Source: a virus
Lineage: Duplodnaviria; Heunggongvirae; Uroviricota; Caudoviricetes
IMG/VR virus record: IMGVR_UViG_3300020152_000001
Span: 108,766 to 132,731 of that record
Direction: 5' to 3' (one strand)
Length of the DNA: 23,966 nt
Shown: positions 9,224 to 17,005 of the stretch, in pieces
How positions within the stretch are numbered: the first letter of the stretch is position 1
How the letters are laid out: every line of letters starts with the position of its first letter
Program-made: the position numbers and the translations under genes
The notes under the pieces: generated by a model
The model's database searches: none
The model's input: the letters and a program-made list of their open reading frames with translations, nothing else
Told to the model about the DNA's origin: nothing

Positions 9224-11029
9224 TTAGACAGGGGTAGTTGGGGAGAAGCGATCGATCTGGATCATGCAGGCCGTGGCCTGATCGCGGAACGCCGTGAACT
9301 CCATGGTTTCCATGATGTCCTGGTCGATACCGCCCGGGGCCACGGGGTCCGAGGTGATCTTGATCGCGGGCAGTGAGTAGTAATACGTGTTGCCGTCGAG
9401 GTCGGTGAACGACCAGCCAATCGACACGGTGTCATGGTCGATGAAGGCCTCGTACATCTCGAAGTTCTCGAAGTACGCCGTCAGTGTGCCCGTCAGCTGG
9501 AAGCGGCCGGTGCCGATGCCACGCGGGAATTTCGAGCCCACCGCCATTTGGTTGCGGAGGCTGGCGTCGCCTTCGAGGGCGATCGATTGCAGAGCCGTCG
9601 CGAGGCTGACGCCGTTCTTGGTCAGCGAACCGACGTTCGTGGTCGCGTTCATGACCTCGGTGGCCGGAGCCTGGAGGTTCACGTAGCTGCCGCCCACGAG
9701 GAACGGATCATCAGTCGGAGACCGGCGGGTCTCGCGGCCTTGGAACGAAAACGAGCCCGTGACGATCGCGCCCGAGGACACGTCCATTTTCCAGGCGCCG
9801 ACGCGGAGGCCGTCTTGGATCAGGTGCTTGTCGACATCGTTGAACGAGGTCGCGATCGAGGTCGATTGCGCCAGGATGGCGGCCACGTCCCCGGGGTTCC
9901 GGAGCATCGAGCCCTTCACCGTCACCGGGGCACCGGCAGTGGCGTCGGCGGCGATGTTCTCAGCGACAACGATCGCGTCGTTGCCGGCCGAGACAACCGT
10001 GAAGAAGCCGCGAGCGGTCGGAGATGCACCCGTGAAATCGGTGATCGTCGTGTTGCCATCGGCGTCGGCCACTTCCGTGATCGAGCCGTTGACATCGTTC
10101 ATATTGACCAGGGTCACCGTGTCCGTGGCGACGCTGACCTTGAGGTTCAGATTGCCAGCGACAACGTCGGCGAGGATGGCCGCAGCCAGAGCCGCAGCAG
10201 ACGCGTCAGCATCTGCGCCGGGCGTCAGTTCGCCAGGGTCGCCGCCAAACGTATAGGTGATCGGGTCGTTGACGCCGTCGTCGATTTCAATCGAAACCGT
10301 GGTCGCGACTTCGTCGAACTGGATGGAGCCCGTCGCGTAGCCCAGGCCGTTGACGAAAATCTTCTGGCCGGACCTCAGCTGGCCGGTGGCGATGGCCGAC
10401 GTGAAGACGCCCACACCCGCCAGGGTGTTCGTCGCGGCGACAGCAGAGATGCCGGTGTTGTTGAGGACGAAGACATCGTTGGCGTCGAACAGGCGAGCCG
10501 CAGCCGCACCGGCTTCGGCGACGGGCGTGCCGGCGACGCCGGTCACGTCAATATCGGTGTTGCCACCAGTGAAGTTGACAGCGGCGACTTCGGCGTAGGT
10601 GTTGTTGTTCGGGTTCGCGAAGCCTTCGGTCTTGATGCGGCGGCCAACCGTGAAATAGTCGCTGTAGTCGGCGCCGGAGATGCGAAGGGTGTTCGCGTCG
10701 ACCCAGCTCAGGGTCGCGCCCTTCCACTGGTCGAAGCCCATCGGCCGCGTCCACGTGCCCAGCACGAATTGCTGGATGAAGTCGTCTTGGCTGCCGGCCG
10801 AGAACTCGAAGTTCACGTCGCCGCCGGACATCGCCGACACTTCGACGACCGAGGAGACCATGCGGTCGGCGCGGAGTTCGTCAGACGTGACTGTTTCCTT
10901 CGAAGCCGCGAGGCTCGAAGAGGTCAGACGCAGTTCGCGAACAACGCCGGAGGCCGGGGTCTGACCCCAAGCGGACGGGCTCTCGACGATGTAACGCAGA
11001 CTGACGCGGTTTGAGTCGGCAAAGCTCAC
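9224..11029 (-). CDS. Major tail tube protein with inserted decoration domains (601 aa)
   Basis: AGGAGG RBS and GTG start. N-terminal DSNRVSLRYIVE..WGQTP...SDELRADRM...GGDVNFEFS and C-terminal G.F.LTG.LTAYFE...Y..LP.IK...D motifs of the YuA/phiCbK-type tube family (recall). Confidence 0.9.
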   Translation of the reverse strand: MSFADSNRVSLRYIVESPSAWGQTPASGVVRELRLTSSSLAASKETVTSDELRADRMVSSVVEVSAMSGGDVNFEFSAGSQDDFIQQFVLGTWTRPMGFDQWKGATLSWVDANTLRISGADYSDYFTVGRRIKTEGFANPNNNTYAEVAAVNFTGGNTDIDVTGVAGTPVAEAGAAAARLFDANDVFVLNNTGISAVAATNTLAGVGVFTSAIATGQLRSGQKIFVNGLGYATGSIQFDEVATTVSIEIDDGVNDPITYTFGGDPGELTPGADADASAAALAAAILADVVAGNLNLKVSVATDTVTLVNMNDVNGSITEVADADGNTTITDFTGASPTARGFFTVVSAGNDAIVVAENIAADATAGAPVTVKGSMLRNPGDVAAILAQSTSIATSFNDVDKHLIQDGLRVGAWKMDVSSGAIVTGSFSFQGRETRRSPTDDPFLVGGSYVNLQAPATEVMNATTNVGSLTKNGVSLATALQSIALEGDASLRNQMAVGSKFPRGIGTGRFQLTGTLTAYFENFEMYEAFIDHDTVSIGWSFTDLDGNTYYYSLPAIKITSDPVAPGGIDQDIMETMEFTAFRDQATACMIQIDRFSPTTPV

Positions 11030-11153: not shown

Positions 11154-11582
11154 TTACCCCTCTGGGGCGTGCCGTTCGTCCCGGAAGTAAGGGACCTTGA
11201 CCCCTACCCCAGCGAAGCCTCGGCGATCGGCGGCCGGCGGATAACTGGCGGCCCGGAGCGTCAGCCGGGCTCCGTCTTCGAGCTGGTGGTCTCGTTCCTG
11301 GAAATGCCGGCCGATGCCGTTTGCGACGGTATTCGCCAAGGCGCTGCCTGTGTTCTCGGGCTGATAGACCGTGATTTCCAGGTCGCCCTCCAGGCGCACC
11401 ACGAAGTTAGGTCCGAGGTTGGCGCGGACGGCTCCCGCCTCCTTGATCCTGATGGCGACGAAAGGCCCGTCCGGTTGTTCGAACGGAGCGTTCGTATAGG
11501 CGACGGGGATCGAGGGGTGGTTCGCCGTCATGAAGTCGCGGAGCCGCGTCTCCAGCAACTTGCGTTGGGTTTCAAGAGACAT
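11154..11582 (-). CDS. Tail terminator protein, plain copy (142 aa)
   Basis: Size, position directly before the tail tube, and motifs P.AY.NAPF..P.GPF and G.L.I.VY.PEN.GS fit the tail terminator family. Confidence 0.8.
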   Translation of the reverse strand: MSLETQRKLLETRLRDFMTANHPSIPVAYTNAPFEQPDGPFVAIRIKEAGAVRANLGPNFVVRLEGDLEITVYQPENTGSALANTVANGIGRHFQERDHQLEDGARLTLRAASYPPAADRRGFAGVGVKVPYFRDERHAPEG

Positions 11583-11593
11583 GTCAGTTTGCC

Positions 11594-13567
11594 TTACAGT
11601 TGAGCATACTCGTATTCGATCAGGTAGTTGACCGCGAGCTGATCGCCGGCAGCCCAGCCGTTGGCCCCGGTGAAGTTCAACCAGAAGCCCGTGTCGCCTT
11701 CGGTGATGGTGACGGTGCCGCTATCGGTATTCCGAGTCCGGTTGCGGACGTTGCTGTTGTTGGCGTTCGGATTGTAGACCGTGACTTGTCCAGTGACCCA
11801 CCCGCGAAGTGCGAGCGGGACTTTGTACGGGATGAAGTGGTTCTGTTGCGCCGTGTTCGCGGCGACAGAAGTCATTCCGTGATGCCCTGCTGAGCTGTTG
11901 TTCGCAGGTGTCGTGAACGGTCCAAACGATTTCTGGCAGTACGGAAGACACTGAGCCAGCGACTCTTCATATCGAGCAGGATGCCACATCGCGGGATCAT
12001 ACGAGTCACCGCGCGTGAGAACTTGCTTCGAGATGTCCAGAGTTTCGTCTTGCGCCATCGTGCCTTCGATCCAGACGATTGTAGCCGTCTGATTGACGTT
12101 GGCTGGAGTCACGCCAGACACCTGAAAAGTATTCCAGACGTTTTGCGTGAGCGGAATGGCGCCGGAAACCGCAACGACTTCCCACTGAGCAGCGGTCTTG
12201 AAGAAGTTGCCTTGTGTGAAGGTGGTGCTCGTCCAGTCGAGTACGGGGTCGGAGCCAACACCGTCCCAGACGTTGGTGCCAGTTGATTTGTACGCGAGGA
12301 TGGCACAGCGAAGACTCTGTCCCGCTGCTGAAGGTCGAGCCCGGCCGCCATACACAATCTCTTGGCCGTCACCAATCCAGTTGATGCCGCGCCGATCGAT
12401 CTGAGTTTGCATTTGGCACATGCCAATGCGCTGCGGTGTCCCGCTTGCTTGAATCAGTCGAAAGCAGCAAGCAGCGCCGTCGCCGTCATGCAGGAGCTGT
12501 TCGATCCGCGAGGTCGCTGACTGCGTGAGAATCTTCCAGCGATCGACTGTCATGCGATTGTCGGCACGGTTGGTGCCGCTGTTCATCTGACCATTGCGAC
12601 GTTGGTCGATTAAGCCATCCCAGTTATCGAGATAGTTCGGCGCCGCCCCGCCCCCGCCGCCTGTAGCGGCGTCGGCCCAGCCCACATCTCCGTCGCCGTC
12701 GCTGTTCTTCACAAGAACTTGGCCGGTCGTGCCGCCAACGGGAACGCCTTCGCCGCCGGCAGCGAGAAGCTCCCAATACACGGCGTTCGGTGGTTCTTGA
12801 TTAGAGTGCGTCTGTACGCAGATGTACGAGTCGCCTTGGTGTTCGACGGCATCATCAACTGCATACGCCGTGGCGTCGCTCCATTCACCTTTCCAGTTGA
12901 GGCCCTTGTCACCTTGCGGGCCCTCGTCCCCTTGTGGGCCTTGCTCACCCTGAAGGCCTTGTTCGCCTTGTTCGCCTTGGATGCCTTGCGGACCTTCGGC
13001 GCCGGTATCGCCTTTCGACACCATGAGTTGCCAATCGTCCGGCTGAGACACCGGAACCTGATTGGTGTTCGTCGTCAGCGAAATGTAGGCACTGCCGTTG
13101 TAGTAGACGGTGTCGTTAGGCTCGTACTCGGTGGCGTTGTTCCAGGTACCGCGCCACGTGATGCCTTCTCCTTGCGGACCAGTCGGACCTTGGTCGCCCT
13201 GCGGGCCGGGGATGCCGCCGGGCACCCAACCGCCGTCAGGAGCCCAGAACAAGGTCTTGCCGGGCGTGAGAATGCACTTGTAGAGCTGATAGTCGTCGGC
13301 ATCATCGCGGAAGTAGACTGTAACTTCTATGTCCGCAGTGTCTGCGTTGTAGATGTTGATCGACTTCGTCTGACGCTGAAGCGTACCAGACGCAGGAGGA
13401 GCGATGATCTCCGTGAGTGTGCTTCCATTCAGGAAACCAAACTGCACGCCCGGCACGAAGATACCGTCGCCGATGTCGACGTAGTCACACTGAAAGCGCG
13501 GCTGATGAACTGCCGGCGCTTCAGCGATAGCGGCGTAAATCGCACGAGTGGTCGTAGTCAGGATCAT
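11594..13567 (-). CDS. Fibre protein: N-terminal adaptor domain, collagen, 2 CBM5/12-like repeats, C-terminal putative receptor-binding domain (657 aa)
   Basis: Start reassigned to ATG 13567 (MILTTTTRAI), 2 nt after the upstream TAA. Gly-X-Y runs, W-x-G-x-W..Y..D.V...G..Y...P..W repeats, GGTTGQVLVKNSDGDGDVGW fibre motif, and a C-terminal DQR..G..DRW...E.L..C..Y.QKS pattern of jelly-roll fibre tips. Confidence 0.82.
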   Translation of the reverse strand: MILTTTTRAIYAAIAEAPAVHQPRFQCDYVDIGDGIFVPGVQFGFLNGSTLTEIIAPPASGTLQRQTKSINIYNADTADIEVTVYFRDDADDYQLYKCILTPGKTLFWAPDGGWVPGGIPGPQGDQGPTGPQGEGITWRGTWNNATEYEPNDTVYYNGSAYISLTTNTNQVPVSQPDDWQLMVSKGDTGAEGPQGIQGEQGEQGLQGEQGPQGDEGPQGDKGLNWKGEWSDATAYAVDDAVEHQGDSYICVQTHSNQEPPNAVYWELLAAGGEGVPVGGTTGQVLVKNSDGDGDVGWADAATGGGGGAAPNYLDNWDGLIDQRRNGQMNSGTNRADNRMTVDRWKILTQSATSRIEQLLHDGDGAACCFRLIQASGTPQRIGMCQMQTQIDRRGINWIGDGQEIVYGGRARPSAAGQSLRCAILAYKSTGTNVWDGVGSDPVLDWTSTTFTQGNFFKTAAQWEVVAVSGAIPLTQNVWNTFQVSGVTPANVNQTATIVWIEGTMAQDETLDISKQVLTRGDSYDPAMWHPARYEESLAQCLPYCQKSFGPFTTPANNSSAGHHGMTSVAANTAQQNHFIPYKVPLALRGWVTGQVTVYNPNANNSNVRNRTRNTDSGTVTITEGDTGFWLNFTGANGWAAGDQLAVNYLIEYEYAQL

Positions 13568-13569
13568 GA

Positions 13570-15372
13570 TTAGATGCCGAGTGAGATGCGGGCCATGACG
13601 CCGGCCCAATCCGTTTCTCCGCCGCCACCGCCGCCGGCTTCCGGTTGCGGTACGAAGATTTCCCAGAAGGACGGAGAGACCGCTGGGTTCTGATTGGTGC
13701 TGTTGGCGATGGCGATGAACGTGTCGCCGGTGAAGCTCACGAGATCATCGACGACGTAAGCGACACCGGAATCCCACACGCCGCGCCAGTTTGCGCCCTT
13801 CGGGCCTTGCGGGCCGACCTCGCCTTGTGGGCCCTGTGGTCCGACTTCACCTTGCGAGCCTTGCGGACCTGTGGGGCCGATGCTGCCTTGAGGTCCTTGT
13901 TCGCCTTGCGGACCTTGCTCGCCTTGCAGGCCTTGCTCGCCACGCTGAGCGACAAGCTCCCACTCGGGAGCGCTGCCTGGAGTCTGCGCCGCAGTTACGG
14001 CTTCAGTTGCAAACCACGAACTCCCATTGCGTTCGACGATGTCGTATTGATCGTAGTCTTGTGGGGACCAGGGACCGCGCCACGCGCCGACGCCGGGAGG
14101 ACCTTGCGGGCCTTCATCGCCTTGCTCGCCTTGGATACCTTGCGGGCCGGGATCACCTTGCAGACCTTGAAGGCCTTGCGGGCCTTGTTCGCCTTGCTCG
14201 CCTGCGGCGCCATCCTGACCTTTCGCGGCGACAAGCATCCATACGTCGCCGGCTACAGGTTCCACACCTGAGTTGGCGACGATCGCCACAAACGACTCAC
14301 CTTGATACGAGACGACTTGGCCCTGCGTGTAGAGAGTGCCGCTGTTCCACTCACCAACTGGAGTGAAGCCGACACCTGGAGGGCCTTGCTCGCCGTCGTC
14401 GCCGGTGAATCCTTGCAGACCTTGCGGACCCTGCGGACCTTGCTCGCCATCGACGCCGCGCTGTGCAAACAAATCCCAGTCGCTGGGATTCGAAGGTGGC
14501 GTGTCGCCAACTGTCGTCCGCAGCGCGATATACGAGCTGCCTTGATATTGGACACCATCGCCTTCGACGTAGATGGTGCCACCCTGCCAGAGACCTCGCC
14601 ACACGATGCCGGCGCCAGGAGGACCGTCATCGCCTTGGGGGCCCTGCTCGCCCTGCGGACCCTGGATGCCTTGTGGGCCTTGGAGACCTTGCGGTCCTTG
14701 CGGTCCTTGCGCGCCGGCTTCGCCCGTGTCGCCCTTCTCTCCAGGAGGTCCCTGATCTCCGGTGTCGCCTTTATCGCCTTTGATGGCGACGAGTTTCCAG
14801 AACGGTGAGTCCGGGACTTCCGGACTCTCGCCGACGTTTTGGAAGTTGCAGAAATACGAACTGCCGTTCAGTTGAACGACATCAGTCTCAACGTATTCGA
14901 TCTCAGGGTCCCACGGTCCCTGAAACACCATGCCAGGGTCGCCGGCAGGGCCTTGACCGCCGCGAGACGCCAACAACGACCAAAACGCGCCGCTGATTTC
15001 GGGCACATCTCCGGTCGTCTCTTGCAGTGCGATGTAGGCGCTGCCGTTATTGTGAACGGCATCGTCCTTCACATACGAAGTCGCGCCCGACCACGCGCCG
15101 CGCCAGTTGATGCCGCCGCCGTGCGAAGACTGCTCAAGCGGAAGCCAGTTGATGGGATCGAGCTGACGCAGCTGGTACGGCGTCATGTCTTCTTGCACGA
15201 AGACAATCATGCCTAGGCTGAGACGCAGAGCTGGAATGTTGTCTCGCGCTGCAATCGTCGCGACTTCGCGCCAACCGCCTTTGCCGTAGAGGGCATCGTG
15301 CGTTGCGTAAGAGTCCTCGTCGGTGAACGGGACGACCTTCGCGGCGACGTTGGTTCCTGAGAGCGCCGCCAT
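13570..15372 (-). CDS. Collagen-like fibre with 6 CBM5/12-like repeats and N-terminal A domain (600 aa)
   Basis: Start at ATG 15372 (TAATG overlap). About 60 Gly-X-Y triplets in 5 blocks separating six Trp/Tyr-rich ~50-aa repeats. Confidence 0.88.
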
Positions 15373-16561
15373 TACGCCCACACCACGCTGATGGCGGCGC
15401 CTGTTTGGATGTTGTTGAAGCGGATGACATTGTAGTCTTCGGTGTGACCGCTTGCGTTAGTTAGACTTACGACGGAGACCGTGAAATCAGAGAACGCGAG
15501 GCCGCCAACGGTGACGGAGCTAGGGACGCCGAACGATGCCGGATACGCGTAGTACGGATACCGCCCGCCGCTGGCGTTGTAGGTGATCGCCTTGCCAAAC
15601 GACGTGGCAAACTCGCTGCCGCCGAGCGCAAGAATTTGCGCGTTGTTCAGTGTCGTCAGAGCCGACACGCCCCAATAGCGGCGACGGCGGAAGGCGATGC
15701 TCGTACTCGCTTGCCGAGTTTGCTCGCCGTCAGACATCGTCAGCGTCCAGGTGCGATCGGCGGTGAAGGGCCCGGCTACGGTTTCGCTGCGATCACCGAC
15801 GACGAGATCACCGACACCTTGATTGATCGACTGGCTGACTTCGTCCTTGTTGTACGACCACGAGAGCGTGACATCGGCGACGGAGCTGCCAATCTCCATG
15901 GTGCCGCGATTGTTCGTGAAGCTCGTGATCTGCGGCGGCGTGTAGAACAAGGAATCCAGAGCTTCCTTCACGTTCGTGAAGCCGGCGTTGTTGTAAGCAA
16001 CGTCCTCTGCGTAGGAAGCTCCGCCACCGCCGCCTTCGAACACTTCCCAGGCGTCGACGCCGACTAGCTGATACGCGGTAGAGTCTTCCCGGACGTAGAC
16101 GATCATTCCCGTGGAGCGACGAAGCTCCGGGATGGCATCGCGATCGGCGATGGTGTCGACTTCGCGCCACCCTCCCTTTCCGTATTCGGCGCTGTGCGTT
16201 GGGAATTCGTCAGCGGAGTCGAAAGGAGCGAGCGGTGCGGCGACGTTGGTGCCAGGTATTGCAACCAAGGTTACGCCCACATGACGGAGATTGCGGCCCC
16301 GTGCTGAATGAAGTTGAAGCGCAGAACGTTGTAGTCCTCGCCGTTGATGTTCACGCTTGAAACCGTGAAAGCAGAGAACGCCAAAGAGCCGATCATGACC
16401 GAGGCCGGCACTCCGAACGACGCCGGAATTGCGAAGTACGGATAGCGCCCGCCCGTGCAGTTGTAGATCACGGTCTTCACGAAGCTCGACGCCATCTCTT
16501 CGCCGCCGAGAGCCAGCACGCCATCGGCATCGAGAGACGGAGAAACGGACACGCCCCAGTA
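15169..16561 (-). repeat. Diverged tandem duplication of a ~0.5 kb unit (B domain, stop, A domain) spanning gene boundaries
   Basis: Units 16561-16065 and 15677-15169. Hand alignment: B domains 62/96 identical, A domains 42/63 identical. Both junctions read TGG GCG TAA. Confidence 0.9.
15372..16268 (-). CDS. Fibre adaptor/linker protein A-(Ig-like)-B (298 aa)
   Basis: Start reassigned from 16748 to TTG 16268 ([12 protein letters not shown]), 2 nt after the upstream TAA, by homology with the next gene's start [12 protein letters not shown]. Central beta-rich segment ([21 protein letters not shown]). Confidence 0.8.
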
Positions 16562-17005
16562 AATGGGCTTCAGGCCCGGCAACACGCTGTCGCTCATCTC
16601 GTCGCGATAGTAGTTGCAGCGCATCATCGTCCGAGCGAACCCGCGAGCCACAGGCGCTGGCGGATACGCGAAGGCGCGGAACGTAAGCTTCGCCGTGTCT
16701 GCGAGCTGAAACTTCTGCTCCTGAAACAGCGGCGCGATGCCATCGCACAGCTGAGTCATCAAAACGCTGCCGCTGTTCTCCGGCTGATAGACATCGATTT
16801 GCAGGACGCCGGGATGGCGCACCACGTATCGGGCCCCAAGGTTGGCGCGGAAGCCGTCACCATCCATGAGGTACACGGCGATGAAAGGACCATCCGGCTG
16901 GGAGAACGGCGCATTGAAGAACGCGATCGGCACCAGCGGATAATTTTCCGCCATGAAGTTCTGGACCCTCGCTTCGACGAAGGCGCGTTGGGTCTGGAGC
17001 GACAT
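16271..17005 (-). CDS. Tail terminator paralog fused to a C-terminal B domain (244 aa)
   Basis: Residues 1-136 align ungapped with 11154..11582 (70/136 identical). Residues 149-244 match the C-terminus of the next gene. TAATG-coupled to the neck gene. Confidence 0.85.
   Translation of the reverse strand: MSLQTQRAFVEARVQNFMAENYPLVPIAFFNAPFSQPDGPFIAVYLMDGDGFRANLGARYVVRHPGVLQIDVYQPENSGSVLMTQLCDGIAPLFQEQKFQLADTAKLTFRAFAYPPAPVARGFARTMMRCNYYRDEMSDSVLPGLKPIYWGVSVSPSLDADGVLALGGEEMASSFVKTVIYNCTGGRYPYFAIPASFGVPASVMIGSLAFSAFTVSSVNINGEDYNVLRFNFIQHGAAISVMWA

Follow-up and report, generated by a model that had tools for sequence, protein, structure and literature searches.

Paired terminal domains encoded across gene boundaries as a candidate docking joint of a putatively neck-anchored phage fibre

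The stretch of DNA analysed here (the window, 23,966 nucleotides (nt), positions 108,766 to 132,731 of IMG/VR record IMGVR_UViG_3300020152_000001) forms the end of a virus record of the class Caudoviricetes that is complete, measures 132,731 bp, and has direct terminal repeats. The relevant genes are all on the minus strand and together form a siphovirus-type late operon, in the order Ad1 (head-tail adaptor), Hc1 (head closure), Neck1/tail completion, P0001, P0002, P0003, P0004, a terminator of 142 amino acids (aa), tube, chaperones, and tape measure (1,429 aa). The subject of this study is a pair of domains, B and A, which meet at two successive gene boundaries of this operon and which we consider as a candidate docking joint: B ends P0001 and P0002, and A begins P0002 and P0003. 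The features of these three genes, with model confidence given as the predicted local distance difference test (pLDDT) of AlphaFold2 (AF2), are listed below.

16271-17005, minus strand: P0001, 244 aa; T (residues 1-138) followed by B1 (about residues 148-244)
16592..17005, minus strand: T domain of P0001, residues 1-138; tail-terminator paralogue of the copy at 11154-11582
16274..16564, minus strand: B1 of P0001, beta-sandwich, about residues 148-244; stop codon TAA at 16271-16273; B profile match 1.8e-48
15372-16268, minus strand: P0002, 298 aa, TTG start; A1 (1-78), GGGGG linker, FN3-like domain (108-194), B2 (197-298)
16035..16268, minus strand: A1 of P0002, with a conserved peptide (1-32) and a small folded core (33-78); A profile match 6.7e-35
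15687..15947, minus strand: FN3-like spacer of P0002, residues 108-194; AF2 pLDDT about 98
15375..15680, minus strand: B2 of P0002, residues 197-298; stop codon TAA at 15372-15374; B profile match 2.3e-55; AF2 pLDDT about 98
13570-15372, minus strand: P0003, 600 aa; A2, six CBM5_12-like modules alternating with collagen blocks, C-terminal G6 peptide
15133..15372, minus strand: A2 of P0003, residues 1-80; A profile match 1.6e-34
13570..15132, minus strand: shaft of P0003; six CBM5_12-like repeats and collagen triple-helix blocks, G6 linker, 15-aa C-terminal peptide

The two B-stop-A junctions of the window

The two copies of each domain are clearly related, with 62 of 101 positions identical between B1 and B2 (61%, E 2e-38) and 56 of the first 110 residues identical between A1 and A2 (about 51%, E 6e-25). 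A profile scan of the genome found exactly two A and two B, all of them at these two junctions and none unlinked. Both junctions read TGGGCGTAA, with the start of the downstream gene abutting or overlapping the upstream stop, and B1 and B2 each end in TGG GCG TAA. When the junction DNAs are aligned, the alignment runs straight across the stop codon with a mean column identity of 81% (majority-residue agreement per column), which bears out the proposal of an initial annotation of this DNA that the repeated unit is B plus stop plus A and spans the gene boundary. That annotation had also described the stop and the coupled start as kept in both copies; the stop and the coupling are indeed common to both, but the starts differ, since at junction 2 an ATG overlaps the stop of B2 (TAATG) whereas at junction 1 a TTG lies 2 nt past the B1 stop. 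The TTG start is supported by the orthologue of P0002 in a related contig (L003), which has an ATG at the exact position of the TTG. An alternative GTG, located inside GTGGGCGTAA at both junctions (16271-16280 and 15372-15381) and overlapping the last B codons, was the start taken by the gene caller, resulting in 302-aa and 603-aa versions of P0002 and P0003. At both junctions of the window the A gene is in the -1 frame relative to B.

The overall architecture first proposed for these genes, namely T-B, A-x-B, A-(CBM/collagen)x6-peptide, and D-(collagen/CBM)x2-tip for P0001 to P0004 (CBM, carbohydrate-binding module), agrees with our domain and profile matches. Its middle 'Ig' domain of P0002 is present, but is better called FN3-like, as it aligns with FN3 modules over 80 residues (VIA Z 8.8, root-mean-square deviation (rmsd) 3.1 A).

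Position and order of B and A across phages

Hidden Markov models (HMMs) of A and B were built and run over loci fetched from IMG/VR, 73 of them B-seeded and 79 A-seeded. B is a strictly C-terminal domain in these loci, where 81 of the 83 B matches end within 15 aa of the stop codon. Similarly, an HMM search of 1.84 billion cluster representatives returned 5,718 B proteins (2,821 at E<=1e-10), and in 147 of the best 150 representatives B ends within 2 residues of the C-terminus. In this placement B differs from the sockets of branching-domain systems, which come directly after the N-terminal anchor of the primary receptor-binding protein. A, on the other side of the junction, is N-terminal in 92 of 100 matches in the A-seeded loci, the few 'internal' matches being overlapping-frame artefacts, and complete A modules start at residues 1-8.

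The initial annotation had suggested a profile search across phage genomes for whether B-ending genes lie immediately upstream of A-starting genes, and the outcome of this search was largely positive. For 87 of the 100 A modules, the open reading frame (ORF) immediately before them ends in B, and in 55 of the 81 B-ending ORFs with enough downstream DNA, A begins no more than 120 nt further on. The A HMM may miss some divergent A forms, such as those of L026 and L032. Clustering of A at 70% identity left 32 clusters always preceded by B, 2 mixed, and 8 not preceded by B, and clustering of B at 60% identity left 15 clusters always adjacent to A, 2 mixed, and 9 not adjacent. The two domains are therefore not usually unlinked or in the opposite order: the order B-stop-A is constant and never reversed, and the genome studied here has no unlinked copy. 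Furthermore, B followed by A in one reading frame was never found in the scanned loci, and proteins that contain both always have A first and B last. The stronger statement that every B-ending protein is followed by an A-starting protein is correct for both cases in this genome, but elsewhere holds for only about two-thirds.

The junction is also found outside the IMG/VR loci. Of 10 B loci in bacterial genomes, 5 have an adjacent A, and these lie in Bacteroides and Tannerellaceae prophages; likewise, 2 of 4 independent metagenome look-ups show A adjacent to B. In a tblastn search of P0002 against cultured phages, two unrelated phage groups were matched at B-stop-A junctions: Tunturiibacter phage Tunturi_5, where gp28 (X-FN3-B) is followed by gp29 (A-CBM...), and Bacteroides phages SJC03/DAC, where gene 81 (coiled coil-FN3-B) is followed by gene 82 (A-...). 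In T5-like Vibrio phage pVp-1, a weak B ends gp075 and a clear A starts gp076. The junction is thus conserved at the protein level, with 35-60% identity, across host phyla (Tunturi_5, SJC03, pVp-1). The identity matrices of B and A are correlated (Mantel r 0.34, 0/2000 permutations), a correlation that shared descent also predicts. In one of the metagenome look-ups (L174:3854-5933), a single gene whose B-ending product has 835 aa stands before a row of three A-starting genes (129, 294, and 260 aa), an arrangement that would suit a set of alternative plugs sharing one socket; gp075 of pVp-1 is likewise 835 aa long.

A junction of this kind could also serve mainly as a recombination linker, by which upstream anchors and downstream shafts are swapped while contact between the proteins is secondary. 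The mosaic nature of both flanks fits such a role, as do the alignment of the window junction DNAs across the stop and the in-genome duplication of the unit in one phage (L152) and probably here. However, what is conserved across host phyla is the amino acid sequence, and the DNA identity is too low for homologous recombination. Neither the stop, nor the spacer length, nor the relative frame is conserved: among 53 non-redundant B|A junctions, most gaps between the stop and the A module measure from -3 to +30 nt, the extremes are -13 and +85 nt, and the relative frames are split 27/14/12. Moreover, a recombination linker would need neither strict terminal positions nor the absence of fusions, and we consider this explanation to be quite improbable. 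We also dismissed the idea of a programmed frameshift or read-through joining B and A in one product, because relative frame and spacing vary across these junctions and no fused ORF was found.

Structure, fusion partners and duplication of the B and A modules

B is a beta-sandwich of about 105 aa, and in the AF2 model of P0002 it is predicted with the same high confidence as the FN3-like domain that precedes it. Foldseek and VIA searches with this model gave generic tandem Ig/FN3 matches alone (tandem Ig only in Foldseek); these searches used the whole P0002 model rather than B by itself. A search of BFVD retrieved many uncharacterised viral proteins with an FN3-B module, including those of crAss-like phages, and none of known function. 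Profile and sequence searches found no Pfam, NCBIfam, or PDB sequence match for either A or B. P0002 matched no Pfam family even at E<=1, including the curated Ig-like/FN3 families (Big_2, I-set, FN3), and PDB sequence searches with P0002, the B profile, and the A profile yielded nothing significant. The A peptide (P..D.Y....YGKGGW) bears some likeness to the blade motif of tachylectin-2 (PDB 1tl2), with E 0.0016 for the whole sequence and insignificant values for single stretches, and this likeness is probably due to chance.

A consists of a highly conserved peptide of about 30 residues and a small folded core of about 45 residues. Residues 1-33 hold 9 of the 13 positions that are invariant or nearly invariant among 55 sequences, with the motif GTN...P..D..TH..YG.GG, and yet residues 1-32 have no secondary structure in the AF2 models of either P0002 or P0003. 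The pLDDT of A1 is below 55 for residues 1-18, and that of A2 is 72, 61, and 44 in the residue 1-32 block as compared to 77-91 in the core (residues 33-80). A therefore places a short conserved peptide at the start of the downstream protein, as is the case for the docking peptides of branching-domain systems. The A core resembles the trimerisation domains of collagen XV (Z 6.9, rmsd 2.4 A, 49 residues aligned) and collagen XVIII (Z 6.0, rmsd 3.2 A, 53 residues aligned), as well as small N-terminal domains of phage tailspikes (Z 4-5). Complex prediction of B2 with A2 at 1:1, with a 55-row alignment for each, scored 0.03 against a mark of 0.32, a value that counts neither for nor against binding. 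It is noteworthy that the three A copies without the N-terminal peptide are all without an upstream B. They include the first link of another phage (L005:3302-4312), where the A core (GKGGWREV...RDAIP...GMVV) is present while the docking peptide and the upstream B-ending gene are both absent. This first link amounts to a natural deletion variant.

The proteins on the two sides of the junction are diverse. In addition to the terminator paralogue of the window and of related contigs (L003, G001), B is fused to a head-closure/FII-like protein in three loci (L081, L084, and L107; PF25138 down to 7e-24), and this head-closure-B protein is homologous to the Hc1 of the window and placed right after the head genes. 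B is also fused to Prophage_tail/tail-tip proteins and to collagen or coiled-coil fibre shafts. The shafts behind A are equally diverse, including collagen/CBM, tailspike-like, and other types.

P0001 is encoded between Neck1/tail completion and the fibre genes, and the genes that follow the B-stop-A junctions include a second terminator, which adjoins the tube gene.

11594-13567, minus strand: P0004, with a D domain, two collagen/CBM units and a globular tip, without an A module; Pfam and PHROG fibre matches
11154-11582, minus strand: canonical tail terminator, 142 aa; PF13554 37.7 bits, phrog_179 1e-16
9224-11029, minus strand: tail tube gene with a 601-aa product; canonical terminator immediately upstream

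Tail terminators assemble as hexameric rings at the end of the tail tube, closing it and connecting it with the neck. Residues 10-97 of P0001 match PF13554 (Phage_tail_terminator_5) with 32 bits against a cut-off of 27, which places P0001 in the terminator family, and residues 1-138 match phrog_179 with E 3.8e-18. The T domain is 51% identical to the canonical 142-aa terminator. Both terminator copies are present in G001, whose canonical orthologue is 81% identical. On these matches, the T domain of P0001 is a tail-terminator paralogue. No terminator-B fusion beyond the window protein and its G001 relative turned up in a search that needs shared 5-residue words, from which distant fusions may escape. 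In the tube protein, Phage_tube_2 covers only the N-terminal part and residues 360-580, and the remaining stretch of about 250-300 residues looks like a decoration domain that has been inserted.

The diversity of fusion partners, together with the anatomy of A, bears on whether B might be a folding or trimerisation helper (a chaperone or assembly platform) for the downstream fibre instead of a permanent joint of the virion. Collagen-like and beta-helical fibres often need chaperones encoded nearby, and the tight translational coupling would deliver both partners together. However, the fibre chaperones known so far tend to be encoded downstream, or else they belong to the same chain as autocleaved domains at its C-terminus. 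Examples of fibre chaperones are gp38 and gp57A of T4 (PMC3004832). The fusion of B to ring-forming virion proteins (the terminator and Hc1) would better fit a structural docking site, and A has a trimerisation-like core of its own. We therefore regard a helper role of B as most improbable.

P0003, the fibre that follows the second junction, matches Collagen (6e-28, 96.8 bits) and CBM_5_12 (4e-27, 94.5 bits) in Pfam as well as the tail fibre family phrog_5073 (E 4e-117). With both module types above the cut-off, it is a collagen-like/CBM5_12 tail fibre. P0004 also matches CBM (39 bits) and Collagen (28 bits). The C-terminus of P0003 (13570-13640) consists of the G6 linker and the 15-aa peptide, and the next gene starts with D (13220-13567). 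A P0003-like tail followed by a D start is kept in both L003 and the more distant L005, and for this reason the P0003 tail and D may constitute a second type of joint, by which the D-fibre P0004 would be attached.

P0002 has counterparts. Proteins that begin with A and end with B account for 11 of 86 non-redundant B-ending ORFs (299-752 aa), and 15 more were found among database matches; P0002-like 'extender' links are thus recurrent, in line with the initial view of the 298-aa protein as a putative extender. The same annotation supposed that duplication of the B|A junction adds segments. In the B tree, B1 and B2 of the window and of L003 group with one long-branch outsider (96/72 support), and a single clade of the window and L003 B1/B2 is not rejected (p-AU 0.088). 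In L152, the two B copies form a sister pair and so do the two A copies. The A tree did not resolve the placement of the window copies. Given the sister pairs of L152 and the closeness of B1 and B2 in the tree, a link has been added by duplication of B-stop-A at least in L152 and plausibly in the phage studied here. The local similarity fits a duplication across the gene boundary, but similarity that crosses the boundary is a feature of the B|A family as a whole and does not come from local duplication only.

A candidate docking joint and its relation to known fibre systems

Considering that the junction is constant while its flanks are mosaic, that both domains keep to strict terminal positions, that no B-to-A fusions were found, that the proteins are conserved across host phyla, and that the A peptide is disordered yet conserved, we favour the view, which we hold to be reasonably probable, that B and A form a non-covalent docking joint encoded across a gene boundary, by which a neck-anchored, multi-link fibre is built. 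This is the most economical reading of the comparative genomics, from which the physical contact is inferred. On this view, a protein that is already part of the virion would offer B at its C-terminus as a socket. The incoming fibre would insert the conserved N-terminal peptide of A as the plug and would be trimerised by the A core. In this phage, the chain would start with T-B in or on the neck ring, displaying B1. The 298-aa A1-FN3-B2 protein would plug into B1 and in turn present B2, into which the collagen/CBM5_12 fibre P0003 would plug via A2. The D-fibre may then cap or extend the chain through the second joint type. Such a chain would equip the neck with a carbohydrate-binding fibre of several segments. 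As for stoichiometry, six sockets might be matched to two trimers, or alternatively one trimer might be attached to each socket, giving a branched chain. The proposed location at the neck follows from two fusions of the putative socket, one with a terminator paralogue in this phage and the other with a head-closure protein in other phages.

Several observations count against this docking joint. About one-third of B-ending genes precede other fibre N-termini, amidase/lysis genes, or unrelated small genes, and for about 13% of A modules the 4 kb upstream contain no B. In two bacterial contigs (L161 and L162, from Sphingomonas populi and Novosphingobium sp.), B ends small orphan proteins of 162-184 aa, with no A after B and no obvious phage fibre context. 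In a metagenomic protein of 2,132 aa that matches nothing in Pfam (P0130), B-like repeats stand in tandem, about 14 of them, each with a weak score of 10-30 bits; the B fold is therefore not exclusively a terminal socket and also occurs as an internal repeat. The loci were collected by motif scans and top-80 lists, which favour closer relatives. The Z values of the A core are moderate and could arise from a shared arrangement alone. Finally, in the AF2 model of P0002, A1 is not docked on B2 in cis and the A peptide is disordered.

Some of these observations would also be accommodated if B and A were a co-inherited two-gene cassette whose products do not touch, B being an Ig-like decoration or carbohydrate-binding end and A anchoring its own fibre elsewhere on the virion. 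C-terminal Ig-like add-ons are common on phage tail and neck proteins, and both B and the domain before it are beta-sandwiches with generic Ig/FN3 matches only. The one-third of B-ending genes that lack a neighbouring A, the orphan B proteins of Sphingomonadaceae, and the B-like repeats in one giant protein all point in the same direction. Nevertheless, such a cassette leaves unexplained why A directly follows B in 87% of cases whether B is on a terminator, head-closure, tail-tip, or fibre protein, why proteins composed of nothing but A, spacer, and B recur, as in P0002, and why the A copies that have lost the peptide are those without an upstream B. We thus think a cassette without contact rather unlikely, and we retain the docking joint.

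To our knowledge, modular attachment of receptor-binding proteins has been well worked out for a few systems only, chiefly those with T4 gp10-like branching domains. No published description of the B/A pair emerged when full texts were searched for the A motif and for fibres anchored by a terminator. With respect to mechanism, the closest systems are those in which a branching domain receives a conserved docking peptide, which have been experimentally validated in phages of Klebsiella (KP32/K11/KP34) and E. coli (G7C, K1-5, CBA120) (PMC13352976, PMC6872550). Like the B/A pair, they employ adjacent genes and stackable layers, with the virion anchor on the first protein only. Unlike B, which is an unrelated-looking beta-sandwich at the C-terminus, their socket is of the T4 gp10-like (XD2/XD3) type and is located just after the N-terminal anchor of the first receptor-binding protein (RBP1). 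In addition, their anchor is a podovirus or myovirus tail adaptor, in contrast to the siphovirus neck protein in the present case.

With respect to architecture, the closest system is the bead-chain neck fibre of Anabaena myophage A-1(L), which consists of the neck anchor gp82, about 14 gp81 trimers arranged head-to-tail, and gp80 with a distal CBM, and in which each trimer uses elements at its N-terminus to bind the C-terminal domain of the trimer before it (PMC10966104). The similarities include the neck anchoring, the single operon, the head-to-tail links, a middle unit with compatible ends, and a distal carbohydrate-binding module. The attachment differs: gp82N docks on a pentadecameric adaptor in A-1(L), and the putative socket of the present phage is part of a terminator paralogue. 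A-1(L) was not among the matches listed in the tblastn search of P0002 against 50,697 phage records. By analogy with the head-to-tail chain of gp81, A-FN3-B might also polymerise.

Two further systems share parts of this arrangement. In the T4 long tail fibre, the segments gp34-gp35-gp36-gp37 are joined end to end in gene order (PMC3004832). The joining of a C-terminal end to an N-terminal end through consecutive genes is common to both, but the T4 fibre has non-repeated joints, a monomeric knee protein, attachment at the baseplate, and no reusable plug-socket pair. Ig-like/FN3 decoration domains and the lactococcal neck passage structure (PMC6669499) resemble B as beta-sandwich modules on the C-termini of tail and neck proteins, with carbohydrate-binding modules shown at the neck. 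These decorations are thought to bind host glycans themselves, whereas B is tightly coupled to the next A-starting gene.

Taken together, the B/A pair is a variant of the already known modular attachment of fibres, and is itself new. It is present in phages of Proteobacteria, Bacteroidota, and Acidobacteriota, including cultured Bacteroides, Vibrio, and Tunturiibacter phages, and it has no annotation, with no fewer than 2,800 clusters (50% identity, E<=1e-10) on record. A broader proposal, the truth of which we consider evenly balanced, is that B:A is a universal connector of tailed phages: any B-ending ring or fibre protein would carry any A-starting protein, A-x-B proteins would extend, branch, or polymerise the chain, and here the terminator paralogue would make the neck the mount. 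If B and A do constitute a true joint, two very common 'hypothetical' domains would gain a function, and sequence alone would reveal the virion protein to which each fibre is attached and the order of the attachments. Such a joint would also explain how neck proteins acquire fibres, via a terminator paralogue in this phage and via head-closure fusions elsewhere.

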